Of a stretch of 24,125 bases of DNA, positions 4,975 to 22,989 are shown in pieces. The stretch is from a virus (lineage: Duplodnaviria > Caudoviricetes): positions 1-24,125 of IMG/VR virus record IMGVR_UViG_3300020042_008600. The stretch is one strand, 5' to 3'. The position numbers and the translations under genes were made by a program. The notes beneath the pieces were generated by a model. It worked only from the letters and a program-made list of their open reading frames with translations. It was not told the origin of the DNA and did not search any database. The first letter of the stretch is position 1. Every line of letters begins with the position of its first letter.

Positions 4975-7056
4975 TTACCTCGTGGGTCCATCAAACTTGG
5001 GACGCAACTCTTTAAACCCAGTCTGCGGGTTCATCACAATGTATTCACCGGGAGGAAGTGTCTTCCACACGCTTGGGTTAGTAATTGTGCGCTGTTGGAT
5101 GCCCAGCAGTTCCCGCACAGCGGTAATCTCTTCGAGCTTTTTTGTGGCAGCTTGACGTGCAGCAATGCCCGTCTTTTTCATGTCTCGAATGCTTGCCGTC
5201 TTACCCTCAATGCCCTCAAGCACGTTGTCTAGCGCAATAATTTGGTTGATGTAGCCGTTCTTGTTGGCAAACATCCGTGGGGCCAGTTTTAGCTCGCCCA
5301 AAATTTGCTGACGCTCGCCTTCGGCAAACCGAGGGTTTTCCTGCAAGGTGTTAACGACGCGGTTGGTCATGCTGTCCAGCATTGCAGTGCTTTGTTGGAA
5401 CTCTGGCCCGATCTTGCCTGCCGCGTCCAGTGGTACGTTACGCGCAACACCCGCCACCAACACAGGCACAAAACCGGTGCCAGTGGCTGCCAAGTCAAAG
5501 AAGCTGGACTTAGTGCCGGTGCGGGCAGCTTGAAAGACCTCGGGTGGAACGGCATCCTCTGTCAGTCCCACATAAGCAGGGGCAGGCGCTGATCGTGTTG
5601 TTCTTGCGCCGCCGACCACAGTCGACGGAACTGGTGCACTACCAGGACGGCGGCTGTTCAAAGCCCTCACCACAAAATCAGGCAGTTCATTGCGCTGTAT
5701 GCGTATGGACTTGAGACCTGTTTCGGGGTCAGTAGACTCAGTCTCAGTTTTTTGCGTGTAGTCCGTTATCGCCGTCATAAACGTATTTTCCTGCTCTGGC
5801 AGCATCGAACCTGCCTGATACAACGGGGCAAATTGAATAAGGGTGTTCAGGATGTCGCCCTTGGTGCCTTTACCCAAGGGGCCTGCTGTTTTTTCTCCGG
5901 CTTTCTTAGCATCAACCTTTGCTTGGGCACGAAGCACTTCATTGATCAAGCTGCCCTTGCGCTTTTGCAGCTCAGTGTTCTGCGCAGTGACCTGGTCAAT
6001 GTCCTTCTCGCCTTGTTGCAGTGCCAAGAGCTTGAGCTGGCGATCAATCTTGCCAATTTCATCAATGCGCTTGCCCATAGCAGCGGGCAGTGTGCGCGTG
6101 GCCCCGGCCAGGCGTGACAAGAAATTGCCGCGCAGGGGTCGCCCTGAGTCGTCCACGTTGCCAGCAAATCCAAAGGCCCGTTGTCCGAGGTCAAACAACA
6201 TCTGCGCCTCAGACGCGCCTCGGTCTGCGCCTAAAAGGCTCGTGTATTCAGGTAGGCGTGCTTGCATGGCCCCTGACAAAGTGGGCGCTACAACCGGCTT
6301 TTGGTTAAACAGCCCCATAGAGGCTCTCTTTGCCGCAGCCACCATGTCCGGCGGGTACAGTGATAATTCTTCAGAAGGACCTTGTCCAACAGGGGTCACG
6401 CCTTCTTCGTCAGACCCTGTTTGAAAATTTTGGACGTACCCGCCGCGCGCCATGCCAATGGGCGGAGGCATGCCCATGTTAGGAGGCATGCCCATGTTAG
6501 GAGGCATGCCCATGTTAGGAGGCATGCCCATATCAGGAGGCATTGGGGGCATGCCCGAAGCGCCGCCCATGCCGCCGGCCATTAGCTCGGCAATGCCACC
6601 TTGTTCAGGTGGAGGCGGGGCCATGCCCATGTCAGGAGGCATGCCCATGTCAGGAGGCATTGGAGCACCGCCCATGTTAGGGGGCATGCCCCCCATCATC
6701 GGTGGCTGTGGCCCTTGAGCCATGTCTTGTGATTGGGGAAGCGCGCCAATACCGCCACCGCCCTGCTGTGCAAGGATAGGCTGCAGCATTGCAAGCACTT
6801 GCTCAGGGGTTTCAGTAGCGGCTTGATAGCCAACGAGGTCAGCCAACTCATCGCGACGAGCATCGACAGAGCGCATGTCGCCCCGCAAGTTGTTCATCAG
6901 GATTTCAGGAGAGTCAGGACGACGCTCCATCATTGTCCGAGGACCCTCTTCTTCGTCATCGCCCTCGTCGCCTTCATCTTCCATGAAGTCCATGAACCCT
7001 TGCATGATCCCCATGTTTTCGATGTCGTCGTCTTCTCGCATCATCTTTTTGTTCAT
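4975..7056 (-). CDS. Putative internal virion/ejection protein (693 aa) with acidic and Met/Pro/Gly-rich N-terminal region
   Basis: GAGG SD. Acidic N-terminus (EDEGDEGDDEEE), PPNMGM repeats, MARGG motif, then a helical/coiled-coil region. Function inferred from operon position. Confidence 0.65.
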   Translation of the reverse strand: MNKKMMREDDDIENMGIMQGFMDFMEDEGDEGDDEEEGPRTMMERRPDSPEILMNNLRGDMRSVDARRDELADLVGYQAATETPEQVLAMLQPILAQQGGGGIGALPQSQDMAQGPQPPMMGGMPPNMGGAPMPPDMGMPPDMGMAPPPPEQGGIAELMAGGMGGASGMPPMPPDMGMPPNMGMPPNMGMPPNMGMPPPIGMARGGYVQNFQTGSDEEGVTPVGQGPSEELSLYPPDMVAAAKRASMGLFNQKPVVAPTLSGAMQARLPEYTSLLGADRGASEAQMLFDLGQRAFGFAGNVDDSGRPLRGNFLSRLAGATRTLPAAMGKRIDEIGKIDRQLKLLALQQGEKDIDQVTAQNTELQKRKGSLINEVLRAQAKVDAKKAGEKTAGPLGKGTKGDILNTLIQFAPLYQAGSMLPEQENTFMTAITDYTQKTETESTDPETGLKSIRIQRNELPDFVVRALNSRRPGSAPVPSTVVGGARTTRSAPAPAYVGLTEDAVPPEVFQAARTGTKSSFFDLAATGTGFVPVLVAGVARNVPLDAAGKIGPEFQQSTAMLDSMTNRVVNTLQENPRFAEGERQQILGELKLAPRMFANKNGYINQIIALDNVLEGIEGKTASIRDMKKTGIAARQAATKKLEEITAVRELLGIQQRTITNPSVWKTLPPGEYIVMNPQTGFKELRPKFDGPTR
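6464..6660. repeat. 18-bp tandem repeats encoding PP(N/D)MGM
   Basis: ggaggcatgcccatgtta at 6464, 6482 and 6500, a variant at 6518, and further gtca variants around 6622-6660. Confidence 0.9.
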
Positions 7057-7065
7057 ATTGACCTC

Positions 7066-9168
7066 TTAAAAAAGACCAGCTTTTTTCGCGCCAGCGAAAG
7101 TTGAGAGTCCTCCCAAACCAACGCCAACAGCTTGTTGGAACGGGCTTGCCGATGGCTGGCTTGCCACTGCCGTAGACATCTGCGTAGACGGTGCGCCTTT
7201 GTAAATGTCGGACAAGAAACCAGCCTGTTGGTAAGGAGCGTAGATTTTTTGCAGCTCGGTGGCACGCTGCGCGTCCAATGTCTGCTGGTTAAACGCCTGC
7301 TGCGCTTGACCGGTGTTGTACAAGAAGTTGATGTCGCCTTGCTGCAATGCCTGAGCCGTTTGGCCCAATGCGCCTTGTTGCACGCCAAGCTGACCCAACT
7401 GGCCACCCAATTGACCCAGGCCTTGAGCAGTCTGTTGGCCAATGCCAAACTGTTGACCCGCCAATGCGCCAATCCCTTGGCCAAGCCCCTGGTACTGCTG
7501 TGCTTGCTGGCCGTAGATACCGGCAGCGGTTTGGGCAGCTTGATTGCGCGCTTGCCCCTGTTGCAGCATCAAGTTGGAAATGTTTTGATTAATTGAGGCC
7601 TCTTGGCCGGCCAGAGCGCCGCCCTGAGAAGCCAAGTTGCCGTATTGCTGTGCGGCCTGTAAGTACTGGCCGGCTGCGCCTTGGCCAAGCTGCGCCTGCT
7701 GCACGCCGAGTTGACCGAGGCCCTGCCCTGCTGCGGCTTGCTGCTGTGCCAAGTTGCCATAAAGACCTGCTGCGGCTTGGCCAAGCTGCGCCTGCTGTGT
7801 AGCTTGTTGACCAACTTGAGTGCCTGCTTGTACGCCCAAGCCAGCTTGCTGTGCGGCCAACTGTGCTGCCTGCTGACCCAATTGGCCCTGCTGGCCCGCT
7901 GTTTGAGTTTGCAACTGCGCGGCCTGTGCAAGTTGCTGTGCAGCACTCTGTCCAAGTCCTGCCTGTTGGGCAGCAACAGAAGCCTGCTGACCCCCAAGTT
8001 GGCCAATCCCTTGGCCCGCTTGCATCTGACGGCCCTGCTGTTGCTCAAATGCCTGCATAGCTTGCGCCTGCGCCTGGCTGTAGCCCTGCGACAAGAGGTT
8101 GGCAATCGTAGCGCCTTTCTGGTCCATCAGATTGCGCTCCATCTCCGCACGTTGGATGCCCTCTCGCTCAGTTCCAAACGCCCCAGCTCTCACTGCCTGA
8201 GCTGCCAAACCTTGCCGGGAAAGTGCGCCTTGGCGATCTATCTGCTTCATTGTTTCGTCAATAACTTGCTGACGATAAGGGTCCATGAAGCTCTGAGCAG
8301 AGGCGGGGTTGTAGCCCTGAATGGCCCCGCCAAGCTGACCAATGCCTTGTTGGATTGTGCTCTGCGCCTGCTCAAAACCAGGTTGTGCAGCTGCAAGACG
8401 TGCCTGCTGCGCAGCTTCGTAAGCATTAGTTACGCCTTGGCCAAAGCCTCCTTGCTCCGCCGCTTTTGCAGCCATGACAGCAGCGTCCTGCCCTTGGCCA
8501 AGTCCTTGGCTAATCAAATTTTGAGAGCCGCTAAAGTCAGCGCCGCCAGAGCCAAGAGCTAGTTGTTGCGCTTGAGTCAGTCCGCCAATCCCTTGGGAAA
8601 TTGCAGTCGTTGCAGGTGTAAGGTCTGCCTGACTTGACAAGGCTGCCATGTTTTGACCCGTGGCCAGTGCTCCGAGGCCCGTGTTCAGGTCTGCCCGCGC
8701 ATTGCCAAACTGGCCAGTGGTGTCGGAATCTGCTGCACGCTGCGCGGCCAAGTCCAAGTAGCCCAGGCCTTGGTTGATTTGACCAATGCCAGAGGTGACG
8801 TTGGCTGCTGCCCCACCTGCTTGGCCCATGGCGGTTTGAGCGTCAGTGAACTGCGCACGGGTATCAGCCCCGCGCAGGATGTCAGCGGCTTCACCCGTGG
8901 TGGTGTATGCCGACCCCAGTGCTGTGTTGGCGTTAGTCATGTAGGGGTTAAACGCCCCTATCCCTTGGTCTCTAGCGGCCTTCATTGCCGCTAGTTGTTC
9001 AGCGGAGAAGCCTGCTACTTGATAGCTAGGAAGCTGTTGTGCAAGCGTCTGAGCCCCAGGTGCTTGGTTGAAGGCCAGTGCCTGGGCTTCTTGCAGTAGC
9101 TTGAGCTTATACGCTTCAATCTCCGGGGCTTCCCGGACTATTTGTTGTTCTGTTCTAATTTCTGACAT
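7066..9168 (-). CDS. Gln/Ala/Gly-rich putative DNA pilot/ejection protein (700 aa)
   Basis: VAGFSAEQ, FMDPYRQQVID and AGAFG segments, long QQAxLG helical repeats, hydrophobic Gly-rich C-terminus. ATG directly follows the upstream TAA. Confidence 0.72.
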   Translation of the reverse strand: MSEIRTEQQIVREAPEIEAYKLKLLQEAQALAFNQAPGAQTLAQQLPSYQVAGFSAEQLAAMKAARDQGIGAFNPYMTNANTALGSAYTTTGEAADILRGADTRAQFTDAQTAMGQAGGAAANVTSGIGQINQGLGYLDLAAQRAADSDTTGQFGNARADLNTGLGALATGQNMAALSSQADLTPATTAISQGIGGLTQAQQLALGSGGADFSGSQNLISQGLGQGQDAAVMAAKAAEQGGFGQGVTNAYEAAQQARLAAAQPGFEQAQSTIQQGIGQLGGAIQGYNPASAQSFMDPYRQQVIDETMKQIDRQGALSRQGLAAQAVRAGAFGTEREGIQRAEMERNLMDQKGATIANLLSQGYSQAQAQAMQAFEQQQGRQMQAGQGIGQLGGQQASVAAQQAGLGQSAAQQLAQAAQLQTQTAGQQGQLGQQAAQLAAQQAGLGVQAGTQVGQQATQQAQLGQAAAGLYGNLAQQQAAAGQGLGQLGVQQAQLGQGAAGQYLQAAQQYGNLASQGGALAGQEASINQNISNLMLQQGQARNQAAQTAAGIYGQQAQQYQGLGQGIGALAGQQFGIGQQTAQGLGQLGGQLGQLGVQQGALGQTAQALQQGDINFLYNTGQAQQAFNQQTLDAQRATELQKIYAPYQQAGFLSDIYKGAPSTQMSTAVASQPSASPFQQAVGVGLGGLSTFAGAKKAGLF

Positions 9169-11343
9169 TTATTTCCCCTTGACGGCTCCGCCTTCGAGCA
9201 TTTTCATCATCTTGTACATGCGAGCTGCGCCTTTGCGACGGCTGCCGCCTCCGGCGTTGCGCACGGCCTTGGCCGTAAAAACGAACTCACCGTCTGACAG
9301 CATCGCGGGAATGTCATCCGAAACCCCAGTGCCGGGGCCGTTGATTGGGCCTTGGCGACGTGGGAAGTTGGTCATTTTGGCGTCACCGCCCTTGGCCATA
9401 CGACGGGGCTGGCCGTCAGGGCCGTAGATGATGGGAACACCGTACAGGCCTGCGACGTTATAGGGTTGCGCTACGCCAGCAGGGCTGTTGGTGACGCCCA
9501 TAGGAATTACTGTGCCGGGCTGGCCGATTGGAATAGTGCCGTACGACGGGGTAGGCACGATTGGGTTTTCCGGTGTCGTAGGCTTGGTGTAGGTGCTCAG
9601 GCCACCCCTGAATTTATCAGGGTTGTCCCTGATGTAATCACTGCCAGTGTAGTTCCGATCAAACGCAGGGTTCGGGTCGGCCGGCTCTCCCTCCATGCCC
9701 CCGGCGGCGGCTACGACGGCAGTGCCTGCAAGAGCGAGTGGGCCGTACTTGGTAAAAATACCCGCGTCTGCTGGCAAGCCAGGTCGGCTGGGAGAGAGGT
9801 ACTCGCCATACAGGTTTTTTGCACCCGTGACCATGCTGTCAATGAAGCCCGGTTGCGCGCCTTGGGGCACGCTTGACAGACTGTAATTAGCAGCACCGCT
9901 TGGCATTATTGTGCGAGGCACTGAAGCATTAAGACCTGATGCGGAGCCACCAAAGCGAGTGCCCGTGCCGGTTGCAGCGTCTATACCAGGAACTGGAGCA
10001 GGAGTTCCACCAGTCATGCTGTAGTCAGCTTTAAAGTTACCGGCGGAGTCAAACCCTGCAGACTGGCCGGACGCGTTCATGCCAGGCACTTTTAAGCCAC
10101 CGCTGTATTGTTTGTCGGCCAACATGGGCAAGTCTTTCGCTGTTGGAAGAGGGCCAGAGGCCTCAACAGGGCCAGTGAAGCTTCCCTCGCCCGTAAAGTT
10201 GGGGTCTCGCATTTGAGCATCGCTAACAGGGCCAGTGGAGCTTCCCTCGCCCGTAAAGTTGGAGTCTCGCATTTGAGCATCGCTCTTTGAGTTCAACCCT
10301 TGCAGCGCTGCTGCTGATGCACCAGAAATCAGACCCATTCTTAAAGCATCTTGGGTGCTCATGCCGCCCAACTTGCCGATACCTGCACCGATTAAGCCGG
10401 TTGTCAAGCCTGTATTCAAGGCACTGCCGGCTGCGCCAGGTAAGTAACCACCAACCGCCGACAGGGGGCTTGTGCCCATGATCGTGCCGCCGCCGCCAAT
10501 GTAGCCCATAGCACCAGAAATTAAAGCATCTTTAACTGATCCGCCGCCCAAAAGTGTTGTACCTGCGCCCGCAAGGCCTGCTGCAGTGCTCATTGAAAGG
10601 CCCACGCCTGCTGGCCCGAGGACCGTGGCCAATGCAACTGTAGCCAAGATGCGCCCAACAGGGCTCTTTACCACGTCCTTGACGACGTTCACAACACCCT
10701 TGACGACGCTCTTGGCCGCATTAAAGATTTTCTTAAGAAAGAATTCCGGCAGGCCTGTAACGGGATTAATCGTGCCCGAGCCTCCGCGTCGGCGCAGCAG
10801 TTGTGCCTCTTGCGGCGTGATGTGCGCCAGCATGGTATCGCCGTTGCGGCCTTGGCCAGCCAAGTACGACGCCACATCCGCCAAGCCGCCAGAGGCCATG
10901 CCCATGGGCTGCAACCCTTGAACAACAGGCGACATATTCATGGGTTCTTGGGCACCCGCGCCCTGCATCTGCCGCATCTCTTGCAGCACCACAAGCATTA
11001 CGCCAATAAATTCAGGATCATATTCTTCAGGCATGTCTCCTTCATCAAGGGCATCTGCCTTAATCAAGTCTTGAAGCAAGCTTTTATATTCGCTGGGGTT
11101 TTGACTAATGTATTCAAAAACCTGAATAAGCATGTCAAGCTGCGCAGGCGCGAGCTGAAGGTCACCAATGTTTTGACGGATGGCTTCTTTTAGAGCAGCA
11201 TCCTCGCCAGGGTTGACCATACCGAGCGCGGTCATCGCGGCATCGTAGGAGTCCGCGCTGGTGACTGTTTGTTGCTGCTGTTGGGCTTGTTTGCCCTCCA
11301 TGCCCATGCCTTGAGGCAAGGCCATGATTCCTTCATTTGCCAT
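9169..11343 (-). CDS. Putative internal virion/ejection protein (about 724 aa) with membrane-active region and C-terminal GPGTGxSDxIPAMLSxGEFV module
   Basis: ATG at 11343 behind a GGAAAGGA SD; the track start at 11358 is a TTG overlapping that SD. Acidic leader, MASGG, GRNGDTMLAHIT...NPVTGLPEF, amphipathic helix and Gly zippers. The C-terminal motif is one I recognise from phage tape-measure/virion proteins. Confidence 0.72.
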   Translation of the reverse strand: MANEGIMALPQGMGMEGKQAQQQQQTVTSADSYDAAMTALGMVNPGEDAALKEAIRQNIGDLQLAPAQLDMLIQVFEYISQNPSEYKSLLQDLIKADALDEGDMPEEYDPEFIGVMLVVLQEMRQMQGAGAQEPMNMSPVVQGLQPMGMASGGLADVASYLAGQGRNGDTMLAHITPQEAQLLRRRGGSGTINPVTGLPEFFLKKIFNAAKSVVKGVVNVVKDVVKSPVGRILATVALATVLGPAGVGLSMSTAAGLAGAGTTLLGGGSVKDALISGAMGYIGGGGTIMGTSPLSAVGGYLPGAAGSALNTGLTTGLIGAGIGKLGGMSTQDALRMGLISGASAAALQGLNSKSDAQMRDSNFTGEGSSTGPVSDAQMRDPNFTGEGSFTGPVEASGPLPTAKDLPMLADKQYSGGLKVPGMNASGQSAGFDSAGNFKADYSMTGGTPAPVPGIDAATGTGTRFGGSASGLNASVPRTIMPSGAANYSLSSVPQGAQPGFIDSMVTGAKNLYGEYLSPSRPGLPADAGIFTKYGPLALAGTAVVAAAGGMEGEPADPNPAFDRNYTGSDYIRDNPDKFRGGLSTYTKPTTPENPIVPTPSYGTIPIGQPGTVIPMGVTNSPAGVAQPYNVAGLYGVPIIYGPDGQPRRMAKGGDAKMTNFPRRQGPINGPGTGVSDDIPAMLSDGEFVFTAKAVRNAGGGSRRKGAARMYKMMKMLEGGAVKGK
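10165..10284. repeat. 60-bp tandem duplication (2 copies, 58/60 identical)
   Basis: 10165-10224 versus 10225-10284 differ only at 10178/10238 and 10203/10263. Encodes SDAQMRD(S/P)NFTGEGS(S/F)TGPV twice. Confidence 0.95.
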
Positions 11344-11403
11344 GATAGTCCTTTCCAATTTTTGACGAAGGCCTCACGGGCCGCGCGCCGGGAAAGGACG
11401 CGT
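11344..11403 (-). promoter_or_regulatory. Structured 5' leader able to sequester the SD of the first ejection-protein gene
   Basis: Perfect 9-bp inverted repeat gtcctttcc (11348-11356) / ggaaaggac (11391-11399), one arm being the SD. Additional CGCGUC/GGCGCG and GGCC/GGCC stems. Confidence 0.6.
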
Positions 11404-11413
11404 TGATGGCAAT

Positions 11414-11443
11414 ATTATCCATTAAATTCTTAACTTCTGTCTA
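11414..11443 (-). promoter_or_regulatory. Candidate sigma70-type promoter
   Basis: Minus strand TAGACA (11443-11438), 18-nt AT-rich spacer, GATAAT (11419-11414). It sits at the largest intergenic gap of the operon. Confidence 0.5.
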
Positions 11444-11768
11444 CTAAAAGAGCGCTTACAACAACGTAAACACTGCTTTGCGAAGATGTGACCACTAACG
11501 CGTCAAGTTGCTCAAGCACTAGAGGGCCCGCGTTCCAGCCGGCCAAAAGGTCTACATACTTGTTAGAGGCTACCGCTTCCAAAGGCACCAGATAGTGCGT
11601 TCCGGTTCCGCTAGGAGAAAAGGTAACGGTTATATTGGTGCTTGCCGCGTTTGTGTTTGCTATCCAAATAGATTTGACGATAGCCGTTGTGGCCGCAGGA
11701 ACCGTCAATACAGTATTTGCAACGGCTGAAACCAAGGGTTCTTCAAACCGTTTATATGCGTTTCCCAT
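11430..11768 (-). CDS. Small beta-rich virion (tail-associated) protein, about 112 aa
   Basis: Start at the ATG in the TAATG overlap (MGNAYK). TVLTVPAATTAIVKSIWIAN and PLVLEQLD pattern resembles small phage structural proteins downstream of tail nozzle genes. Confidence 0.62.
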   Translation of the reverse strand: MGNAYKRFEEPLVSAVANTVLTVPAATTAIVKSIWIANTNAASTNITVTFSPSGTGTHYLVPLEAVASNKYVDLLAGWNAGPLVLEQLDALVVTSSQSSVYVVVSALLVDRS

Positions 11769-11941
11769 TATTTTCCAAGGAACCAAGTTTGTGCTTGATC
11801 CTTGTTCTCCGTAGTTATAGGCGTGTAGGTGCTGTTAAGCTGCGCGATAATCTGCTCAAGCGAACGCACAAGCTGATTGAACTCCCCAGGGTCGTAGTCC
11901 TTGGAAGCATTGGGCAAGCGGACGTTGTTAATTTTGCTCAT
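11768..11941 (-). CDS. Small phage protein, about 57 aa (RLPNA..YD...NQLVRSLE)
   Basis: ATGA overlap with the upstream stop and TAATG overlap with the downstream gene. The track's longer start at 11989 is unlikely. Confidence 0.7.
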   Translation of the reverse strand: MSKINNVRLPNASKDYDPGEFNQLVRSLEQIIAQLNSTYTPITTENKDQAQTWFLGK

Positions 11942-13782: not shown

Positions 13783-14015
13783 TACCTAAATCCTGCGGTT
13801 TTCTTTGCTATTTTTTTTGGTTGAGCTACGAACTGCTTACCAGCCGCCTTGCCTTTGCGCTTGGCTTTGGTCGTAGCTGCATATTCCGCAGGGGACAAAG
13901 ACTTGATAGCTGCTTCAGGGAGATACCGCTCACCCGTTTTTGACGAAGGCTTCCCCGACTTAGTGCGCCATTTCTGGTCGCCCCAGTTTTTAAGAGAAGT
14001 CTGTGGAGCTTTCAA
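13782..14015 (-). CDS. Small Lys-rich protein, C-terminal half of a DUF5872-like family
   Basis: SLKNWGDQKWRTKSGKPS, GERYLP and GKQFVAQP motifs. TTG start in a TTGA overlap with GGAGG 9 nt upstream. Confidence 0.7.
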   Translation of the reverse strand: MKAPQTSLKNWGDQKWRTKSGKPSSKTGERYLPEAAIKSLSPAEYAATTKAKRKGKAAGKQFVAQPKKIAKKTAGFR

Positions 14016-14368
14016 TCTCTGTAACCTCCGCCCGCTTTTTTATAGCGCTGCGCTACCATCTGGGCTTTTCTCGCTGACCATTGCCCTGCTCCAGTGCCTG
14101 CGGTGGCCTCTGCCTTCACAGCGTTAAAAATACGTTTGCGCAGTTCTGGCTTGGTGTAGTTGCCCGCAGCGTTGACCGTGGACTTTGCTTCTCCACCTGC
14201 CTTGAATGAGGCGGTTTTAGCCGCATTGGCAAAATCACTTTTCTTAGGGGCACCTTTGGCACCGACACTGCGCATCTTTTCGCCGGAGCCTTCGGCAATG
14301 CGTTTTTTCTTTGCAGCGATGTTGGCATACAAACCGCCGCCTGCACTTTTCTTTACTGGAGTTTTCAT
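14012..14368 (-). CDS. Lys-rich two-module protein (GLYANI... module plus DUF5872-like N-terminal half), about 118 aa
   Basis: ATG at 14368 right after the endolysin stop. NYTKPELRKR, GQWSARKAQ and YKKAGGGY motifs. Confidence 0.7.
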   Translation of the reverse strand: MKTPVKKSAGGGLYANIAAKKKRIAEGSGEKMRSVGAKGAPKKSDFANAAKTASFKAGGEAKSTVNAAGNYTKPELRKRIFNAVKAEATAGTGAGQWSARKAQMVAQRYKKAGGGYRD

Positions 14369-14369
14369 A

Positions 14370-15217: not shown

Positions 15218-15492
15218 CTTTTTTCCTTTTCCTCTAAGTTCTTCAACAACTTTTCAATTCTTGCCTCTGTACGCTCTGTCTTTTTGTTCAGCGCCAGTGA
15301 ATCAAAGTACAGCATCACCATCAACGGCATAAACAGGCAAATCAGAATCATCAACAACATTGCAACAACTATGTATCCCGATTCAGGTGAATGGCGTACA
15401 TCAAGGCCCAAATTTCTAAAATTACCACCAGAACCGCCCCAAAAATTAAAGCGTCGTTTTGTAACCTGTCGATCATTTGCTGACGTTTCCAT
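15214..15492 (-). CDS. Small membrane protein with C-terminal coiled coil (start uncertain: 15492 or 15360)
   Basis: TM segment IVVAMLLMILICLFMPLMVMLYF, then a charged helix. ATGA coupling to the holin. Confidence 0.6.
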   Translation of the reverse strand: METSANDRQVTKRRFNFWGGSGGNFRNLGLDVRHSPESGYIVVAMLLMILICLFMPLMVMLYFDSLALNKKTERTEARIEKLLKNLEEKEKR

Positions 15493-15896
15493 TTTCTTTT
15501 CCGTTCTGCTATCACCTCTTGCTTTATCTCTTCATCATGCTTTTTTGCAAGTCTTTTAAATTCCGCTTCGTACCTTGACCAGACTGCACCCAAGGCTGGG
15601 TCGGTGTGGTAGACCAAAAACTCACGCAACTCAACCGCTTGGCGCTCAAGTTCAATCTGGTTGAACACGTTCTCAAGAGCCTGAGCCTTGAGCGATTTTT
15701 CCTTTGGCGGGTTAAGTTCTTGACGCTTGACTTCTTTTTTTACTTCCTCATGCGCCTCAAAGAACTGCCCAATGAATCCTGAAATCTCCTTGGTTATCTT
15801 GTAAAGGTCAGAGCCTGTGGCTTTGGCATCCTTATACAAAGAAATACCTTGCTTAATTCCAGCAATTGCGGCGAGAGCAAGGGTAATAGGTTCAAT
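15369..15896 (-). CDS. Coiled-coil protein with C-terminal TM helix, probable ATT start, about 175 aa
   Basis: The frame stays open 19 codons upstream of the track's TTG (15839) to ATT GAA CCT ATT ACC (xEPITLALAAIAGIKQG), preceded by AGGGA. C-terminal hydrophobic helix. Confidence 0.68.
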   Translation of the reverse strand: MEPITLALAAIAGIKQGISLYKDAKATGSDLYKITKEISGFIGQFFEAHEEVKKEVKRQELNPPKEKSLKAQALENVFNQIELERQAVELREFLVYHTDPALGAVWSRYEAEFKRLAKKHDEEIKQEVIAERKRKWKRQQMIDRLQNDALIFGAVLVVILEIWALMYAIHLNRDT

Positions 15897-15908
15897 TTTA
15901 TTTTCCCT

Positions 15909-16121
15909 TTACATCGTTGCTCCCGATGCAGCAGGAACCGTCGTAATCTCGATTGCCACTGACTGGTTTAGGTCCAGTGGCTGCCCGCAATCGGCGCAAG
16001 TGTCTGCGTCAATTTCGGATTGATCAAGGTCGTAGCCGCACGCGCCGCAGAGAATTTCTACGGCGTGTGCGGGCTCAATGTTGCCGTCAGGCAGCAGCTT
16101 CGACGGGTTTTGCAGTTTCAT
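15909..16121 (-). CDS. Small Zn-ribbon protein, about 70 aa
   Basis: CGACG...CADCG. The ATG at 16121 (MKLQNP) is preferred over the track start. Confidence 0.65.
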   Translation of the reverse strand: MKLQNPSKLLPDGNIEPAHAVEILCGACGYDLDQSEIDADTCADCGQPLDLNQSVAIEITTVPAASGATM

Positions 16122-16275
16122 CGGATGCGGGTGCCTCAGGCACGCTAGTTTGTGGGGTGGCTTCTCCGTGCAACGCGGCAACCAGCTGGAAAACCTCGGT
16201 GTACGGACGCGAGCCCAGGTAGTTCAAGACGTTGTTGATTAAAGCCAAGGAAAGTTCAATTTTTTTGTCGTTCAC
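16087..16275 (-). CDS. Small phage protein, 62 aa (possible fibre-associated chaperone)
   Basis: GTG start behind GGAGA. LINNVLNYLGSRPY.EV..LV pattern resembles small proteins downstream of phage fibres. Confidence 0.7.
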   Translation of the reverse strand: MNDKKIELSLALINNVLNYLGSRPYTEVFQLVAALHGEATPQTSVPEAPASDETAKPVEAAA

Positions 16276-16284
16276 GGTTTCTCC

Positions 16285-16313
16285 AAAAGCGCCGCTGAAA
16301 TGGGGCAGCGGCG
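16285..16313 (-). terminator. GC-rich hairpin with short U tract after the fibre gene (weak terminator or processing site)
   Basis: cgccgctg (16290-16297) / cagcggcg (16306-16313), 8-nt loop, followed on the minus strand by CTTTT and then the next SD. Confidence 0.5.
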
Positions 16314-16323
16314 AAGACCCCTA

Positions 16324-18783
16324 TCAGCCTAGACGATAACAAATAAAGGTGTTTGCAGATGTTCTTCTAAAACGTAGTCGTGCAGTTGTTGCCGTTGTAA
16401 TACTTAATGAACCAACAAATGTTACGTTTGTATTTACGGCAAGTGTGATTGTCCCGGAAGCTGTATTAATGATGAAAAAGTCATAACCAACATTTGATGC
16501 TGCCCAAGTGGTTACGGCCTCCAAAGATGTCCCGTTAGGTACTGTTATTGTGTATGACGTACCACTAGCTGTGATAATTTGCGATTGGATATTGGCTGTG
16601 GTTAGTGTAGTAGCACCGGCAGTAGTTGCAGGGGTAGGAGCATAAGGCATGACTGCCCCTGTCTGCATTTGCATATTGCCATTAAGGTCAATAGTTAAAC
16701 GAGTTGTCGCCGCAGTTTCTGCTTCAATTGTAGAAGTACTAAATTTCCATCCGCCAGAACTTGCCGTGCCGGGAAGATAAAACACCCCTTTTCCAGTAGC
16801 TACTGCAAGATTATTACCAATTGAAATTGAAGAAGCCGAAGTTGCTATGCCAGATGTACCTACACATAAAGTACCGTCTCTTAATGTCATTTGTTTGGTT
16901 GTTACAAGGTTCCCCGAACTTGCGGCTGAAAAATTAAGTTCCGCCGTATTGGCCCCCGGACTTTGTGACCATATCCTTGCTGCATCGGGGTTGTTAACGG
17001 AAACGTCATTTATACCAAACTGAAGCATTGCCAAAGCACTGCCCCCGGATAAGTCTTGAATAGATATTCTTGCAGCACCGCCCCCGGTTGTAGAAGCAAC
17101 TGTCAAAAGTCCATATGTACTTGGCGTGGTAGTACCGACTCCCACATAACCTGTTGTGTTGCCCGTAGGCAGTGTCCCCGCAATATTACCCGTGGTAGTT
17201 GTAAGGCTGAACGAATTAGTTGTTGAGGTAAAGTAGTTTGCTTGAGTGGCACTGGTGTTTGCATACCAAATTTGATAGGATTTGGCCCCCGTAACGGCGG
17301 TCCATGAGACTGCAATTGAAGATGTTGCACCGGTTGTCGTAACAACAGTGGACTCAGTACTTGCAACAGTTGTACCGCCCAATCCATCAACAGCAACAAT
17401 CACAAAGTACCAAGTGTTTGCAGCAAGAGAGCCGCCTGATGCCGATCCAACTGCTGTCGGTGTAGCGGGTGTACTGAGTGCCGTAGATGTATAGCCAATC
17501 GTTCTTGCCGATCCTATTACATCGAGTTTGTAAGAAGGGGAAGTGGTGCCAATACCTACATCACCAGTGGATGTAATACGCATAGACTCAACACCACCCT
17601 CAGTAAAGGCAATAGTGTCAGCGGCAGGGAACCATATACCTGTGTTGGTGTCGCCTGTTGTGGTGATGGCAGGCAACAACGCTGTTCCAGCCTGCACGGT
17701 TGTTACACCTGTAGCTGACAAAGTAGTGAAAGCTCCAGTGCTTGCCGTTGTTGCACCTACAGACATATTGTTTATCGTGCCAACACCTGTAGAGGTAAGG
17801 GCAAGAGTAGGCGCATTAGCCGCAGTCAACGTAATTAAGTTGGTATAGGCTGTACCATCCACATCATAAGCAGCAAGGGCAAGTGTGTTGGCGGCTGTCT
17901 GAGCAGACCGAAGTACTGTGCCAGTTACAAACTGTCCGTTTACGGTAATGGTATCTGCTACCGCATCACCAATAGTTGTATTACCGTTTAGCGTAGTCGC
18001 TCCAGAAGCAGTTAGCGTGGTGAACGCACCAGTAGAAGCTGTCGTTGCCCCAATAGACATGTTGTTGATTGTGCCCGTACCTGTTGAGGTCAACGCCAGC
18101 GTTGGCGCGTTAGCCGCAGTCAACGTAATAAGGTTGGTGTACGCAGTGCCGTCCACGTCATAAGCGGCAAGGGCGAGTGTGTTGGTTGCTAATTTTGCAG
18201 ACCGAAGTACCGTGCCCGTGACGTAAGAAGCCGCTTGAGTGATGGTGTCAGTATCCGCGTCACCCAAGGTCACGTTTCCAGTAGCACCCAAGGTTGTAAA
18301 CGCCCCAGAACTGGCTGTAGTTGCACCTACCGTAGCGTTGTCAATCGTGCCGCCGTTGATGTCAACAAAGTCAAACATCTGGATGACGTTTGTGCCATCA
18401 ACATACAGGTGAGCTTTGCGGCCAGTTGGAACGGTAATGCCTGTGCCTGCCGAGGTCTTGACCGTAATGCTTTGAGAGCCCGTGGTGTTGTTTTGGACAA
18501 TGTACTGTTTCTGAATTGTCGGAACTATCAGCTCTCGCGTAACAGTCAACGAAACTGCTGACGTCACGTTGAGCACCAGGGCCCGCGCTGCTTGAGACGC
18601 GTTGCTGTCCGTCAGCGTAATAGTCAAGTTGGCGTCTGATGGGTAGCTTGGATTTCCGTAACCAACAATGGACTGCTCAAGCGCTGTGCCCAGGTTGGTG
18701 TTCGTAGTCGTGCCCCAAGAACCCGAGTTCTCGCCCGTGGCCATCAACTCAATCTTTAGGTTTGTGGAGTAGGTACTTGCCAT
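16324..18783 (-). CDS. Tail fibre / receptor-binding protein, 819 aa
   Basis: MASTYS...GENSGSWG..TNTNL N-terminal anchor, Thr/Ala/Gly-rich repeats, DTNTGIWFPAADTIAF, ESMRITSTGDVGIGTTSP, FN3/Ig-like insert. Confidence 0.85.
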   Translation of the reverse strand: MASTYSTNLKIELMATGENSGSWGTTTNTNLGTALEQSIVGYGNPSYPSDANLTITLTDSNASQAARALVLNVTSAVSLTVTRELIVPTIQKQYIVQNNTTGSQSITVKTSAGTGITVPTGRKAHLYVDGTNVIQMFDFVDINGGTIDNATVGATTASSGAFTTLGATGNVTLGDADTDTITQAASYVTGTVLRSAKLATNTLALAAYDVDGTAYTNLITLTAANAPTLALTSTGTGTINNMSIGATTASTGAFTTLTASGATTLNGNTTIGDAVADTITVNGQFVTGTVLRSAQTAANTLALAAYDVDGTAYTNLITLTAANAPTLALTSTGVGTINNMSVGATTASTGAFTTLSATGVTTVQAGTALLPAITTTGDTNTGIWFPAADTIAFTEGGVESMRITSTGDVGIGTTSPSYKLDVIGSARTIGYTSTALSTPATPTAVGSASGGSLAANTWYFVIVAVDGLGGTTVASTESTVVTTTGATSSIAVSWTAVTGAKSYQIWYANTSATQANYFTSTTNSFSLTTTTGNIAGTLPTGNTTGYVGVGTTTPSTYGLLTVASTTGGGAARISIQDLSGGSALAMLQFGINDVSVNNPDAARIWSQSPGANTAELNFSAASSGNLVTTKQMTLRDGTLCVGTSGIATSASSISIGNNLAVATGKGVFYLPGTASSGGWKFSTSTIEAETAATTRLTIDLNGNMQMQTGAVMPYAPTPATTAGATTLTTANIQSQIITASGTSYTITVPNGTSLEAVTTWAASNVGYDFFIINTASGTITLAVNTNVTFVGSLSITTATTARLRFRRTSANTFICYRLG
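17710..18330 (-). repeat. Internal duplication of about 92-98 aa in the fibre (two copies plus a partial third)
   Basis: Identical 35-aa core NTLALAAYDVDGTAYTNLITLTAANAPTLALTSTG repeated at 294-nt spacing; GATTAS(S/T)GAFTTL occurs three times. Confidence 0.92.
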
Positions 18784-18793
18784 TTCATTTCCT

Positions 18794-19441
18794 CTATGGA
18801 GTTATTTGTGTCCAGGCCACCGTGTTTGCATCGTTTACTGCCACCCATCCCGGCGACTGAGCAGAGCTTATATTTTGCCAGTTTGGAGTTTGGTTGTCAT
18901 CCACCAAAGACCAGATTACTATGCGAACAGAACCGACTTCTCCCGTTGCCTGCACGCCCGTGACGGAAACATCTGTTCCTTCCTCAACCGTGACAGAGCC
19001 TACCTGGCCCGTCGCCTGCAATCCCGTGACAGTGACGTTAGCCGTCCCCGTAACGGTGACTGACCCGACTTGGCCAGTAGCCTGCAATCCCGTAACAGTA
19101 ACGGCAGCCGCCGCTGTAACCGTGACAGAGCCTACCGCGCCCGTCGCCTGCAACCCCGTGACAGTGACGTTAGCCGCCGCTGTAACCGTGACAGAGCCTA
19201 CCTGGCCCGTCGCCTGCAGCCCCGTAACAGTAACGGCAGCTGTGCCTGTAACCGTGACAGAGCCTACCGCGCCCGTCGCCTGCAGCCCCGTAACAGTAAC
19301 GGCAGCTGTGCCTGTAACCGTGACAGAGCCTACCGCGCCCGTGCCAGTGGGAAGAGCAGCAAGGCTCTGGCCCCATGGGTCTTCGCCCCAGCCAACACCG
19401 GAGGCATCCCACCCTTGGAACGCTACAACGGTATCGGCCAT
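18794..19441 (-). CDS. Val/Thr/Gly-rich repeat virion protein (fibre-like), 215 aa
   Basis: AGGAG SD. About 6.5 copies of a 22-aa repeat flanked by Trp-containing termini. Confidence 0.8.
   Translation of the reverse strand: MADTVVAFQGWDASGVGWGEDPWGQSLAALPTGTGAVGSVTVTGTAAVTVTGLQATGAVGSVTVTGTAAVTVTGLQATGQVGSVTVTAAANVTVTGLQATGAVGSVTVTAAAAVTVTGLQATGQVGSVTVTGTANVTVTGLQATGQVGSVTVEEGTDVSVTGVQATGEVGSVRIVIWSLVDDNQTPNWQNISSAQSPGWVAVNDANTVAWTQITP
18925..19345. repeat. 66-bp coding tandem repeat array, about 6.5 units
   Basis: cccgtcgcctgcagc at 19206 and 19272; atcccgt at 19021 and 19087. Encodes ATG(A/Q)VGSVTVTxxAxVTVTGLQ. Confidence 0.93.
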
Positions 19442-19450
19442 GAACGCTCC

Positions 19451-19888
19451 TTAAGCGATACGAATGATCGCGTTGGTTGCGTCGGCCGTTGGGAAGATGA
19501 TGGTAAAAGTTCCACTTGTAGAAGTCTTTGAACCGCCAAAATCTAAAACGCAAACAGTTGGGTCGCCCGAAGCCGTGTCGTTGTAAATCAACGCGCCAGA
19601 GGCCGTAATGGTGGCGCTTGTAAACGAAAGGTCAGCAAAATCTGTAAATGCTGTGGTGCTCGTCGACGTAGGGGTTACGTTTGTCAGCGTTCCGCCCCCC
19701 GCCGCGTACGTGCCTGAGGCAGCGACCTCGTTGGTAGCCGTGTAGGCTGTGGTGGCCGCCGTAAAAGACGCGCTGCTGGAGTACAGCGCCAGCTTAAACG
19801 TGTTGCCCGTGCTGAGGGTAAAGTTGTGAACCGCGCGCATCAGCTCGACCTTAAAGCTGGTACACATGAAGTTTCCAGAAAACGCCAT
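19451..19888 (-). CDS. Small beta-rich virion structural protein, 145 aa
   Basis: CTSFKVEL, FKLALY, YAAGG.TL, ALIYN, VLDFGG and AIIRIA motifs. AGGAG SD. Confidence 0.72.
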   Translation of the reverse strand: MAFSGNFMCTSFKVELMRAVHNFTLSTGNTFKLALYSSSASFTAATTAYTATNEVAASGTYAAGGGTLTNVTPTSTSTTAFTDFADLSFTSATITASGALIYNDTASGDPTVCVLDFGGSKTSTSGTFTIIFPTADATNAIIRIA

Positions 19889-19889
19889 T

Positions 19890-20177
19890 TTAATCTCCTA
19901 GTAAATGGACAAGCTCCGCATGTCCTGCTTCGCGTAAACGATAAGCAATTGTTGAGCGATCCTGCTCAACTGCCTCTTTCAAATAAAACGCTACAACATG
20001 CTTGACGCTGTCCTTGAAAGCTCTTGCTTGGGCCTGCACCGCTGGGTGCGACTGGTCCCCGACATAGATGATCTTGTCGGCAGCGCGTGCGGCAAGTTCT
20101 TCCACAGACCAGCCTCGGTTTTGAGTGGTCTCGACGTCGACGCTGCCGACAAGAATGGGGGAGGAAACGGTAATCAT
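19890..20177 (-). CDS. Hypothetical phage protein, 95 aa
   Basis: ATGA coupling to the upstream gene. TTQNRGWSVEELA and QARAFK motifs. Confidence 0.7.
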   Translation of the reverse strand: MITVSSPILVGSVDVETTQNRGWSVEELAARAADKIIYVGDQSHPAVQAQARAFKDSVKHVVAFYLKEAVEQDRSTIAYRLREAGHAELVHLLGD

Positions 20178-20833
20178 GGTCCTGGTGAATCCGATTTGAG
20201 GGGAATACGAAGCATGCCATCTCGGTACTCATCCCGGCGACGACGGCCCTGTTGTTCAACGCCAAGCCCTTTAATGGCTTCTTGGTAGGAAATCTTGAAA
20301 TACTCCATCATCTCTCTTGGCCCCTTAGTGTAGCTGTATGCCTGTACCAAACATGCATACAATAACGCTTCAGGGGCATTTATGCTTACCCACGTGGTTG
20401 GGTTTGCCGACGACAGCTGCGTTGGACGGTAAATGTATCCCAGCTCCACGCTGTAGTCCTGGTTTGGCGTAGGCGCAACGTAAAACGTGTTTTGGTCCCA
20501 CACAGCATAGTACTTGGGCGTGCCTTGCGTGGTGCCGTTTGGCCAGTACTCTTTCATGAAGGACGTGTCCCTAAACTCCAAAAACAACTGATCACCACTA
20601 GTGGGCGTCAGAATTAAGTACCGATGCGTCAACAGATCAGTGGGAGCAGTCAGAAACCTGTTGCCTTGGGTCATGGTGCCAGTGACTTCTAGCTTGAACA
20701 CATCCAAGTCAATCTCTCGAAGAATTTGATTCTCCGCCATTGTGATAAAGACGTTGATCACCGGTTCGGTAAAAACATTGCTGCCCACCTCGGTGTAGTT
20801 TTGGATGTTGGTGACAAGTTCGTCGTAGGTCAT
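20174..20833 (-). CDS. Head-tail adaptor / tail tubular A-like protein, 219 aa
   Basis: MTYDELVTNIQNYTE, FITMAE, GTPKYYA, VAPTP and APEALLYACLVQA motifs. Position in the tail module. Confidence 0.68.
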   Translation of the reverse strand: MTYDELVTNIQNYTEVGSNVFTEPVINVFITMAENQILREIDLDVFKLEVTGTMTQGNRFLTAPTDLLTHRYLILTPTSGDQLFLEFRDTSFMKEYWPNGTTQGTPKYYAVWDQNTFYVAPTPNQDYSVELGYIYRPTQLSSANPTTWVSINAPEALLYACLVQAYSYTKGPREMMEYFKISYQEAIKGLGVEQQGRRRRDEYRDGMLRIPLKSDSPGP

Positions 20834-21180
20834 GAGATGCTTACAGTCACTGATCCAACAACACCTTGCGCAATAAGCGCTTGGTCCTGAACATACGGCT
20901 GCATATTGGTGCCACCCTGAACACTGCCATAGCTTTGAAAGGCGGTAAAGCCAGGCGCTCCAACAAAGACGGACACAGGTTCAATGCGATCGGGTCGCGG
21001 ATCGCGCAACGCAATGGCGTCTCCGTTGTAACGCAATGGCTCCAGCTGGGGCTCTTTGGGCTCGTAGTCGTCAGGGCACACCATAAACCCGCGCCAGTTT
21101 TTGCGCAGGTTGTTGTACCTGTACCGCTGCCCGCAATAGTCGCAGAGTCCGTAGGAATGTATGCCAGTCGCAAATGCCAT
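20830..21180 (-). CDS. Small Cys-containing phage protein, about 116 aa
   Basis: ATG at 21180 just after the upstream stop. CDYCG...VCPDDYEPKEPQL and DPRPDR motifs. Confidence 0.7.
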   Translation of the reverse strand: MAFATGIHSYGLCDYCGQRYRYNNLRKNWRGFMVCPDDYEPKEPQLEPLRYNGDAIALRDPRPDRIEPVSVFVGAPGFTAFQSYGSVQGGTNMQPYVQDQALIAQGVVGSVTVSIS

Positions 21181-21181
21181 G

Positions 21182-21847
21182 TCATACCCCCAGGTCCGGT
21201 ACAAACTGCACGCTGGCGGTGTCTCGGTCCTCCAAGGCGGCGCGCTGGAAGTCTTCTTCGTAAATTGCCTTGAGCGCCGAGGCACGGTCTGCAGCAAACT
21301 TGAGCGACAGATAGTACGCCAAGCCGGAGGCCAAACACGGTAAAAACCTAAAGTTTACATCCGCCGTGTTGGTGTAGGCCCCTGCGTCTTGGATGCGACG
21401 AATGCGGTAGTACACAAAGGTATATCCGGCGGCCGGGGCAGGGTAAAAATATACCTTAGGAATGTTGGTTCGCTCAACATAGAACTGAGCAGGACGGGCC
21501 TCCGTGGTCTTGTCAGGCACATTGAGCCAGTCCTCCCGGCTGATGCGCTCGATGTAGACATCGGTGTTGGTGCCTTGGTTGTTTTGGCGAATGACCGCCT
21601 CAAGCACGTTGACAACGGAAGCGTCCAATGAAATCTCATTAACGCCGGCCGTCAGCGCAAAAGTAGCCTCCTCAATGGTCCACAAATTCAACCCGCGATT
21701 GGCCCAGTCAAGAAACAACAAGTTAAGCGAGCGGCGGGCTGAAGTAAGTTGGTACCCACTGGTTGGCCTCATGCCGCAGCGCTCAAACGCCTCTTCAATT
21801 AAGTCATCAATTGACAAGTCAAATGTGGTTGTGTTGGAGGTAGTCAT
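21182..21847 (-). CDS. Head-tail adaptor-like protein (P22 gp4 / tail tubular A-like), 221 aa
   Basis: IEEAFERCG, ARRSLNLL..DWANRGLNLW, RP.QFY and LPCLASGLAYYLS motifs. Confidence 0.65.
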   Translation of the reverse strand: MTTSNTTTFDLSIDDLIEEAFERCGMRPTSGYQLTSARRSLNLLFLDWANRGLNLWTIEEATFALTAGVNEISLDASVVNVLEAVIRQNNQGTNTDVYIERISREDWLNVPDKTTEARPAQFYVERTNIPKVYFYPAPAAGYTFVYYRIRRIQDAGAYTNTADVNFRFLPCLASGLAYYLSLKFAADRASALKAIYEEDFQRAALEDRDTASVQFVPDLGV

Positions 21848-22512
21848 TTGCTGTACAAATTGTCAAATGTCGCTTGTGCATCCATGTACGAGTCATCTTG
21901 CTCCGCACAGTGTATCCACTGACCAGGCTTAAAATCAGGTGCCCCTTCCCCTGTTTGCCAAAACGCAGGGCTTGTGACCCTAACGCGATTGTTTGGCAAC
22001 GCCACAATGTTACCTGTCCACTTGCCTGCATCGGTCAACATCAAAACATGACTCTGTTTGTGCTGCGCAGGACAATCGGCCACCTCGCTCTCCGTGTAAT
22101 CCACGGTAAACAAGTACCGGCCCGTATAAAACTCGCCGTCAATCTTGCACATCCAAGGACTGGGGCTGGTCCGCGCAAACTTAATCACAGTGTGATGATG
22201 CGACGGACAGTCCCAAGGCTGCGCCAGATGGGTAGGCATGCGCTCGGGCCACTCTTCCAATGGGATGTCCCCCACCAGCGCGGTGATTGGCATGCGCGCC
22301 CACATAGCTCCCCCATGCACGTTTTCTGACCCGTCTACGTGGCTTTCACACCCTGTAAACACAATCTGAAAACTCAAGCAACGATCCGGCATGACGTTGA
22401 CCGCAATAACATTTGCGTGCAAGTACTCGCCATGGTACTTCTGATGCATGTGGGTAAACTCGCGTCTAACCCAGCACTTAAAGTACGGAATGTTGCTGAT
22501 GAGGTATGACAT
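21844..22512 (-). CDS. Cys/His-rich globular phage protein of unknown function, 222 aa
   Basis: Coupled at both ends (TAATG, ATGA). GGAMWARMPI.AL, QPWDC, YLFTVDY, QHKQSH and ALPNNR motifs. Confidence 0.75.
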   Translation of the reverse strand: MSYLISNIPYFKCWVRREFTHMHQKYHGEYLHANVIAVNVMPDRCLSFQIVFTGCESHVDGSENVHGGAMWARMPITALVGDIPLEEWPERMPTHLAQPWDCPSHHHTVIKFARTSPSPWMCKIDGEFYTGRYLFTVDYTESEVADCPAQHKQSHVLMLTDAGKWTGNIVALPNNRVRVTSPAFWQTGEGAPDFKPGQWIHCAEQDDSYMDAQATFDNLYSK

Positions 22513-22766
22513 TACTTAGCTTTTTTAGCCATTTTCTTGGCAGCACCGCCAGCAGCGTAACCTTTGGACATCATGCCGCCTGAGGCATAGCCTTTGGCCA
22601 TCATGCCGCCGCCCATCATGCCCTTAGGCTTTTTCTTGGCGTCGCCACCTTTGGCCATCATTACTGGGCCCGTTTTTTTGCTAGGCTCAGAGATCATTTT
22701 GTTTGCGGGGCCGCTTTCAACAGCACCACCACCGCGCGTAGCGGCACCCATTCCACGTCCAGCCAT
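22512..22766 (-). CDS. Small Lys/Gly/Met-rich protein with tandem xAxGG motifs, 84 aa
   Basis: AAGGAG SD. MAKGG, MMGGG, YASGG and YAAGG. Confidence 0.75.
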   Translation of the reverse strand: MAGRGMGAATRGGGAVESGPANKMISEPSKKTGPVMMAKGGDAKKKPKGMMGGGMMAKGYASGGMMSKGYAAGGAAKKMAKKAK

Positions 22767-22767
22767 A

Positions 22768-22989
22768 TTAAACTCCTTTTTTCATTGCACGGCCTTTAAC
22801 GTCGGCCGTTTTACGTTTAACAGCGCGACCCATTTTGTCGCTCATGTCAGAATCTTTCATCATTTTGCCGTCAGGCATCTTGTGCATGCCTGCCATGCCA
22901 CCTTTTTTCATTTTGCCAACGCCATCAGCCGCAAAAGCAGGCACTGATTTGCCGCCTTTTTTAACCATTTTTAATTTTGAGGTTGCCAT
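22768..22989 (-). CDS. Small Lys/Met-rich basic protein, 73 aa
   Basis: AAGGAG SD. VPAFAADG.GKMKKGG and HKMPDGKMM motifs. Confidence 0.75.
   Translation of the reverse strand: MATSKLKMVKKGGKSVPAFAADGVGKMKKGGMAGMHKMPDGKMMKDSDMSDKMGRAVKRKTADVKGRAMKKGV

Follow-up and report, generated by a model that had tools for sequence, protein, structure and literature searches.

A conserved A-x-G-G motif after acidic leaders and between modules of late phage proteins, a candidate maturation signal

The viral record IMGVR_UViG_3300020042_008600 of IMG/VR (Duplodnaviria; Caudoviricetes), a complete record of 24,125 bases referred to here as the window, represents the late region of a podophage of the HTVC023P type, and a short motif of the form [F/Y/M]-[A/K]-x-G-G (the regular expression used in our counts) recurs among its late proteins. 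We found that this motif is a conserved protein signal, X-A-x-G-G, which in late internal proteins is placed after acidic leaders and where modules meet. In our view, held with moderate confidence, it is a maturation site that would be cut just before the Ala, removing propeptides and freeing cargo modules; our confidence goes no further because the transfer to these proteins of a cut mapped in phage T5 rests on motif and architecture.

An initial annotation of the window had listed eight copies of the motif in five late proteins, and by translation all eight were found with the same words and coordinates on the minus strand. These sites and the parts of the proteins that surround them are as follows.

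9169..11343, minus strand: open reading frame of 729 amino acids (aa), likely start Met 6; ejection/internal protein
10885..10899, minus strand: MASGG, residues 154-158 of the 729-aa protein (site 1), closing a leader of net charge -16
10738..10884, minus strand: N-module GRxGDTxLAH...GGSGTINP.TGLPEF, after motif 1
9385..9399, minus strand: MAKGG, residues 654-658 (motif 2), preceding the Gly-Glu module
9169..9384, minus strand: C-terminal Gly-Glu module (C-module), GPGTG-SD-IPAMLSDGEFVF plus two helices
4975..7056, minus strand: 693-aa likely ejection protein, with a 202-aa leader of net charge -22 ahead of its motif
6439..6453, minus strand: MARGG, residues 202-206 of the 693-aa protein, kept in every covering aligned homologue
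6412..6426, minus strand: FQTGS, degenerate second copy nine residues after MARGG
14012..14368, minus strand: 118-131-aa basic protein, phrog_16028 and phrog_17747 modules fused at FKAGG
14192..14206, minus strand: FKAGG at this module joint
22512..22766, minus strand: 84-aa basic protein with three motifs, MAKGG (22644-22658), YASGG (22575-22589) and YAAGG (22545-22559)
22768..22989, minus strand: 73-aa basic protein with MKKGG (22897-22911)
19694-19708, minus strand: YAAGGG in a 145-aa protein, inside a Gly run; a ninth match to the regular expression, unlisted in the annotation

Apart from the motif, the five proteins indeed share no overall similarity, and the claim that internal or ejection proteins and small basic late proteins have one signal in common is supported. 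Its placing at the boundaries of regions was also borne out, these being the ends of leaders and the joints of modules. The Y-[SA]-x-GGG word of the 145-aa protein, kept in DSL-LC04, HTVC023P and HTVC027P, is probably a different, structural site.

Because the pattern was defined on the window, the enrichment seen there (nine motifs in late proteins against 1.53 expected, with 0 of 300 shuffles as high) is no fair test, and held-out relatives were therefore used, with a null of 300 shuffles in 30-residue blocks that keep the local Gly/Met/Lys richness. Late proteins of G001, a complete 61-kb relative, carry 14 motifs (2.59 expected), those of DSL-LC04 carry 12 (2.28 expected) and those of HTVC027P carry 6 (1.39 expected; 65 of 87 coding sequences, CDS); non-late proteins have none in these genomes (45 such proteins in G001), and no shuffle was as high in any of the three. 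The predicted excess of late over non-late proteins thus holds in these genomes, is weak in HTVC023P (5 late motifs against 2.10 expected, 12 of 300 shuffles as high, one non-late motif), where variants with Asn occur, and is missing in CRP-901 (0 late against 1.45 expected, 0 non-late; 67 of 77 CDS). That the motif arises by chance in proteins rich in Gly, Met and Lys, or from a DNA repeat, is extremely unlikely. The 84-aa protein is 24% Gly, and HTVC023P, once matches in Gly runs are set aside, keeps 2 motifs against 1.37 expected, which is not significant; against coincidence stand the shuffles of the three held-out genomes and the conservation of positions. The codons at the eight sites include all four Gly codons and mixed Ala and Lys codons, and the signal is therefore one of the protein and no DNA repeat.

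The conservation expected by the annotation is clearest in the 729-aa protein, which runs from an acidic leader through motif 1, a conserved N-module, a low-complexity middle and motif 2 to the Gly-Glu module, and whose homologue in DSL-LC04 carries the annotation 'tail tape measure protein'. At site 1, GG is present in 106 of 112 diverse leader-bearing homologues, with Ala two residues before it in 95 of the 106, preceded by F (75), M (26), L (3), R (1) or Y (1) among the 106. The leaders are negative in 110 of the 112 (median charge -18, against +9.5 for the remainder of the chain), and both motifs are conserved among aligned homologues. A motif lies at most 45 aa upstream of the N-module in 128 of 168 instances, at a distance that varies, and the N-module is also found without it. 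Upstream of the C-module the motif is present in 90 of 100 anchored homologues; the Ser, Asp and Glu of this module are the same in all 71 sequences aligned. The Gly-Glu module occurs in all four motif-bearing genomes examined (G001, DSL-LC04, HTVC023P and HTVC027P) and was not found among the examined CRP-901 proteins. Profile comparison of the N-module with the C-module gave no significant similarity (14.8% and 1.2%). Among named Atlas clusters, the one closest to residues 195-693 of the 693-aa protein is PF16928, a P22-type DNA ejection protein (score 0.84), which we treat as no more than a lead.

The same signal separates modules in the small basic proteins. Both phrog_16028 and phrog_17747 exist as separate short families in PHROGs; their fused forms have the motif in 6 of 6 cases, and the second module alone matches the regular expression in 0 of 6 (LKKGG in 3). 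An additional module is inserted between two motifs of a 131-aa type protein in L010. The motif is kept in 47 of 50 homologues of the 84-aa family, with a copy number that differs among relatives, and in 39 of 42 of the 73-aa family, which has a motif-bounded insertion in L077; in both families insertions are flanked by motifs, and tandem copies stand 8-10 residues apart. Two other basic families have no motif (77-aa family, 0 of 11; DUF6321 family, 0 of 53). In relatives, large mosaic proteins are encoded between terminase and portal, the mosaic gene being outside the window, at these coordinates.

G001:C1:6649-12078: mosaic protein of 1809 aa
G002:C1:40787-45829: mosaic protein of 1680 aa
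G004:C1:34055-37078: large mosaic protein

Six motifs each delimit modules in the G001 and G002 mosaics, and the DSL-LC04 counterpart has three motifs at its start plus a PcfJ domain. The G001 mosaic contains DUF6973 and one copy of the N-module, and the G002 mosaic an HExxH word; PcfJ (DSL-LC04) and DUF6973 (G001) are the sole Pfam matches of these proteins.

A second word, G-x-G-x-A-x-[RK]-G, opens the 84-aa protein (22725-22766, minus strand) and forms the terminal tail of several unrelated basic proteins, about 10 residues past the AxGG motif (instances in L057, at G001 59571-60149, in L089:816-1463 and in L104:5678-6049). This tail, in place of the motif, could be the actual sorting tag.

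Overall, the sequences that follow the motif are unrelated across about 20 protein clusters (23 in the count, some being Gly-run noise). We consider it unlikely that the motif is a structural hinge without a reader, which would open small domains as their first turn and be tolerated where fusions join, with the T5 cut peculiar to T5. Its frequent placing ahead of the N- and C-modules would suit a hinge, as would its position at the start of three tape-measure module families; the variable spacing between motif and module, the existence of the N-module without it and the diversity of the sequences behind it do not. In addition, the motif is unstructured in both AlphaFold models of the C-module, which are of low confidence (predicted local distance difference test 62 and 65; predicted template modelling score 0.39 and 0.34). 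The first of these models had no Foldseek match, and VIA-align gave nothing above Z 2.6.

Direct information on cutting comes from tape measure proteins. In T5, pb2 is cut 'after R1127', as determined by intact mass (Linares et al. 2023, PMC10038345), and we found that AEGG directly follows R1127, the resulting fragment being 92 aa long. As pb2 has 2 A-x-G-G words in 1219 residues, a random bond would precede one of them with p=0.0016, and the cut site is kept in 24 of 24 T5-like loci; the accessible text of PMC10038345 names the site R1127 and no motif. DT57C too keeps a cut C-terminal fragment (PMC10713586). The orthologous site of the HTVC023P-type family has R-A-x-G-G variants as well. Like the window proteins, pb2 is an ejected protein with its A-x-G-G word ahead of a short Gly-Glu module; unlike them, it is a siphophage tail protein with a single site, and its module is not demonstrably homologous once the motif is left out.

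The lambda protein gpH is processed into gpH* and gpHC once the tail has been assembled, by a cut some 14 kDa short of the C-end whose site and catalyst are unknown (PMC12617516). The motif is found at F733 (F-A-T-G-G), ahead of a module homologous to that of the window, with a second copy 45 residues on, at 778. This is one tail protein, unlike the set of head cargo described here. A further A-x-G-G word of gpH (L051:1043-3604), A-S-G-G, lies at residue 718; a cut there would give 78.2 and 14.1 kDa, nearer to the reported masses than a cut at 734. If the maturation reading is true, the lambda cut is predicted at 733|734 or 717|718, which would close a 40-year-old gap.

A search with the C-module returned 966 phage records at E<=1, with matches to PHROG tape measure proteins (TMP) down to E 8e-8 and to the PDB chains 8ZDO_S and 8RK3_A, and the module shares homology with those of tape measure proteins of the JBD30, Douge and lambda types. 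By profile comparison the window C-module matches the JBD30 type at 99.6%, the JBD30 and lambda types match at 97% with the motif excluded, and the T5 type forms a third family (87.5% with the motif included); the search patterns used to collect the T5-, lambda- and JBD30-type families contained the motif. The profile A1 of the whole protein matched the JBD30 TMP, with no match to T5, lambda or crAss001. The JBD30, Douge and lambda modules are carried on long-tail tape measures, unlike the podovirus-type context of the window. The JBD30 cut proposed at residue 1066 was predicted by software in the JBD30 paper and was not counted.

An Atlas lead (score 0.80) pointed to the cargo protein gp45 of crAss001, which has seven A-x-G-G-x-[LIVMT] sites; a further 29 late proteins that we examined, 14,106 aa in all, have none. 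In 29 gp45 homologues there are 111 such sites against 9.3 expected, and module swaps among the homologues occur at A-x-G-G words. The portal-bound model of gp45 spans residues 425-552 (Bayfield et al. 2023, PMC10172136; PDB 7QOG), and residue 425 is the Ala of an AFGG word (p about 0.01, given 8 sites in 842 aa). The resolved segments, 214-245 and 425-552, each lie within one inter-motif piece, and the four ranges covered by mass spectrometry given in PMC10172136 cross no motif. This podovirus cargo is thus punctuated by A-x-G-G as in the window, with swappable basic modules and a portal-bound domain that begins at the motif Ala, and differs in having every motif in one protein, which the authors, in the accessible text, treat as uncut. 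A phmmer comparison found no shared modules with gp45. The basic inter-motif modules of gp45 (L149:30988-33516) differ in presence and order among crassvirus homologues.

Published peak lists of crAss001 bands 4-13 from matrix-assisted laser desorption/ionization (MALDI) mass spectrometry (PMC6235969) were re-analysed by mass match alone at 80 ppm, with trypsin peaks, a few broad peaks and gp50 left out. Clear fingerprints were obtained for the portal and eight other proteins, and none for intact gp45 in these bands (10 of 13), with 0-5 peaks per band; the peaks assigned to gp45 are mostly explained by keratin-like or other proteins. This result, weak because fragments below 15 kDa were unsampled, lends weak support to gp45 not being intact. 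If the maturation reading is true, gp45 would consist of separate pieces instead of a single chain running 420 Å through the portal.

Taken together, the bond R1127|AEGG of T5 and the start of the crAss001 model at A425 make X|A-x-G-G the likely register, with the boundary before Ala in both, and not after Gly-Gly. The annotation had favoured the latter, a cut like those of adenovirus, African swine fever virus (ASFV) or C39 enzymes, and this claim found no support. Adenain, ASFV pS273R and the C39 leader peptidases cut after GG, with a spacing of the (M/I/L)xGG type. The Gly-Gly in the signal and the basic products are alike, the small basic ones resembling adenovirus core peptides, and GG is the most invariant portion of the motif; spacing and register are unlike. 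The hydrophobic residue stands fourth from the end in (M/I/L)xGG and fifth in the present motif, and none of the eight sites has M, I or L at P4. In T5 the cut precedes Ala, in crAss001 AFGG is kept downstream, and a dedicated cysteine protease of this kind was not found among the 31 window proteins or the scanned G001 genes. We therefore regard a cut after Gly-Gly as very unlikely.

Under the maturation reading, the 729-aa and 693-aa proteins would enter the prohead with their acidic leaders (net charge -16 and -22), whose later removal by a cut would yield mature chains, near-neutral or basic, that begin with ASGG and ARGG. The small basic proteins and the terminase-portal mosaics of relatives would be polyproteins that split into basic peptides and effector modules, and new modules would be acquired by insertion between motifs. 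The small Gly-Glu module after one motif may cut itself and, within the head, other cargo as well.

Processing or sorting by one GG signal had been proposed together. The former gains indirect support from the T5 site and the crAss001 model; the latter stays a live rival and the main one, although in our estimate rather improbable. As an uncut docking or sorting tag, phi-A-x-G-G-x-phi would bind scaffold, portal or the Gly-Glu module and so load the cargo, tandem copies adding avidity. Cutting between copies 8-10 residues apart would release little, certain large proteins have the motif close to an end (13 residues from the C-terminus or 17 from the N-terminus), it is ordered in the portal-bound model of crAss001, and scaffold is known to recruit the ejection proteins of P22 (PMC8402733). 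A tag does not explain the T5 cut at the motif or the related small basic families and the stand-alone module that do without it, and terminal motifs are few: among 76 larger motif proteins, 7 have one at most 35 aa from the C-end and 5 at most 45 aa from the N-end. Sorting and cutting are compatible and not exclusive.

If cleavage takes place, the Gly-Glu module would be the first candidate for the catalyst, with about an even chance, ahead of a host protease and, less probably still, an unrecognised phage gene; the module may be either catalyst or docking unit. Since lambda gpH is cut inside the finished tail, self-cutting would be favoured. A host enzyme, the less probable alternative, has a parallel in P22, where host OpdA trims gp7 to a KGGKG end (PMC8402733). 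The head-module genes of G001 had no family match and are common to the motif-less CRP-901. One gene of the window was tried as the protease and rejected.

21844-22512, minus strand: 222-aa Cys/His-rich protein beside the basic genes, annotated PurM or ferredoxin in relatives, no Pfam match

Of 70 loci with both the adaptor and the 84-aa gene, just 17 have this gene; the motif persists in 47 of the other 53, and DSL-LC04 lacks the gene.

Several observations, besides the weak enrichment in HTVC023P and its loss without Gly runs, weigh against a maturation cut. The mapped cut lies in T5, outside the HTVC023P-type phages, and the tie to the T5 and crAss001 cases is one of motif and architecture: with the motif removed, the T5-type module has no significant profile similarity to the lambda, JBD30 or window types (0.2-0.5%), and the crAss001 portal-bound domain has at most 1.9% to the tape-measure modules. 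The canonical lambda site, F733|A, would give 79.8 and 12.5 kDa, against the reported values of about 78 and about 14. Bayfield et al. describe gp45 as a single chain bridging 420 Å (PMC10172136), and the first residue of a cryo-electron microscopy model can be a mere edge of order. Furthermore, the residue preceding Ala is variable (F, M, Y and L as well as R, A, K, S and H), and at three window sites Lys replaces Ala or there is no adjoining module. A scan of the 31 window proteins and a selection of G001 genes found no protease family, and the examined proteins of G001, DSL-LC04 and HTVC027P have no HExxH. A reference cited on T5 speaks, in its title, of a host role in tail cleavage.

With these reservations, the motif system works like the prohead maturation of internal proteins, yet departs from adenain-type systems in motif spacing and from T4-type ones in the residue before the Ala. 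T4/phiKZ-type prohead proteases are dedicated head enzymes that cut after Glu in a short x-x-E signal. As with T4 gp21 and phiKZ/SPN3US, acidic propeptides are found on internal or ejection proteins and one short signal serves many unrelated substrates; unlike them, there is no Glu before Ala at site 1, the conserved residues stand behind the inferred cut, and no such protease gene was found among the scanned G001 head genes. P22 gp7 likewise loses an N-terminal leader before a GG-containing word, through the host oligopeptidase OpdA; its leader has 20 residues and its Lys-Gly-Gly-Lys-Gly end has one residue before GG, not two, whereas the window proteins have leaders of 149-202 aa and the word A/K-x-G-G. 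The polyvalent proteins (Iyer et al. 2017, PMC5512222) are also mosaic packaged proteins encoded near terminase and portal; zincin processing is proposed for them there, and the accessible text mentions no joint motif. An A-x-G-G phage signal was not described in the literature that we searched, with most subscription papers outside its coverage.

More tentatively, X|A-x-G-G may be a maturation signal that is widespread among tailed phages and as yet has no name. Its reader would be a small, self-cutting, mobile Gly-Glu module that sits on siphophage tape measures (T5, lambda, JBD30, mycobacteriophages) and on the portal-bound cargo of podophages (crassviruses, HTVC023P-type). If this were true, podophages would load ejection proteins, basic peptides and swappable effectors as precursors and release them without a head protease gene. 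For the window and its relatives, a maturation site would explain by one rule how this abundant group of aquatic phages loads and swaps the cargo that it injects.

The plus strand of the window encodes a helicase and a nuclease, and the minus strand the late operon, with the end of a cement protein, the small basic genes, two SU10-type adaptors, a 614-aa nozzle-type protein, a fibre, lysis genes and four large proteins (729, 700, 693 and 1101 aa). The context is podovirus-type in its SU10 adaptors, its nozzle-type protein and its relatives HTVC023P/027P, and no tail tube gene was recognised within the window. The nearest cultured phages are DSL-LC04, HTVC027P, HTVC023P and CRP-901/902. Public runs richest in window words are freshwater metagenomes, at least half of the words being present in 5 of the 20 runs listed; RNA runs contained just 0.06-0.11 of them. 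Other features of the operon are the following.

4560..4574, minus strand: YREGG in the 1101-aa ejection protein, a candidate extra site outside the regular expression
7066-9168, minus strand: 700-aa protein, Gln/Gly/Ala-rich, 294 to 700 aa among relatives
18794-19441, minus strand: 215-aa protein of 22-residue tandem repeats, Thr/Val-rich
20174-20833 and 21182-21847, minus strand: two SU10-adaptor paralogues with one gene between them

The YREGG word of the 1101-aa protein is also present in G002 and G003. Near residue 33 the 700-aa protein reads FNQAP in the window and FNQGG in its G001 and G003 homologues. A GroES-like gene within the head module (G001:C1:3424-3933) is kept in all five genomes compared.

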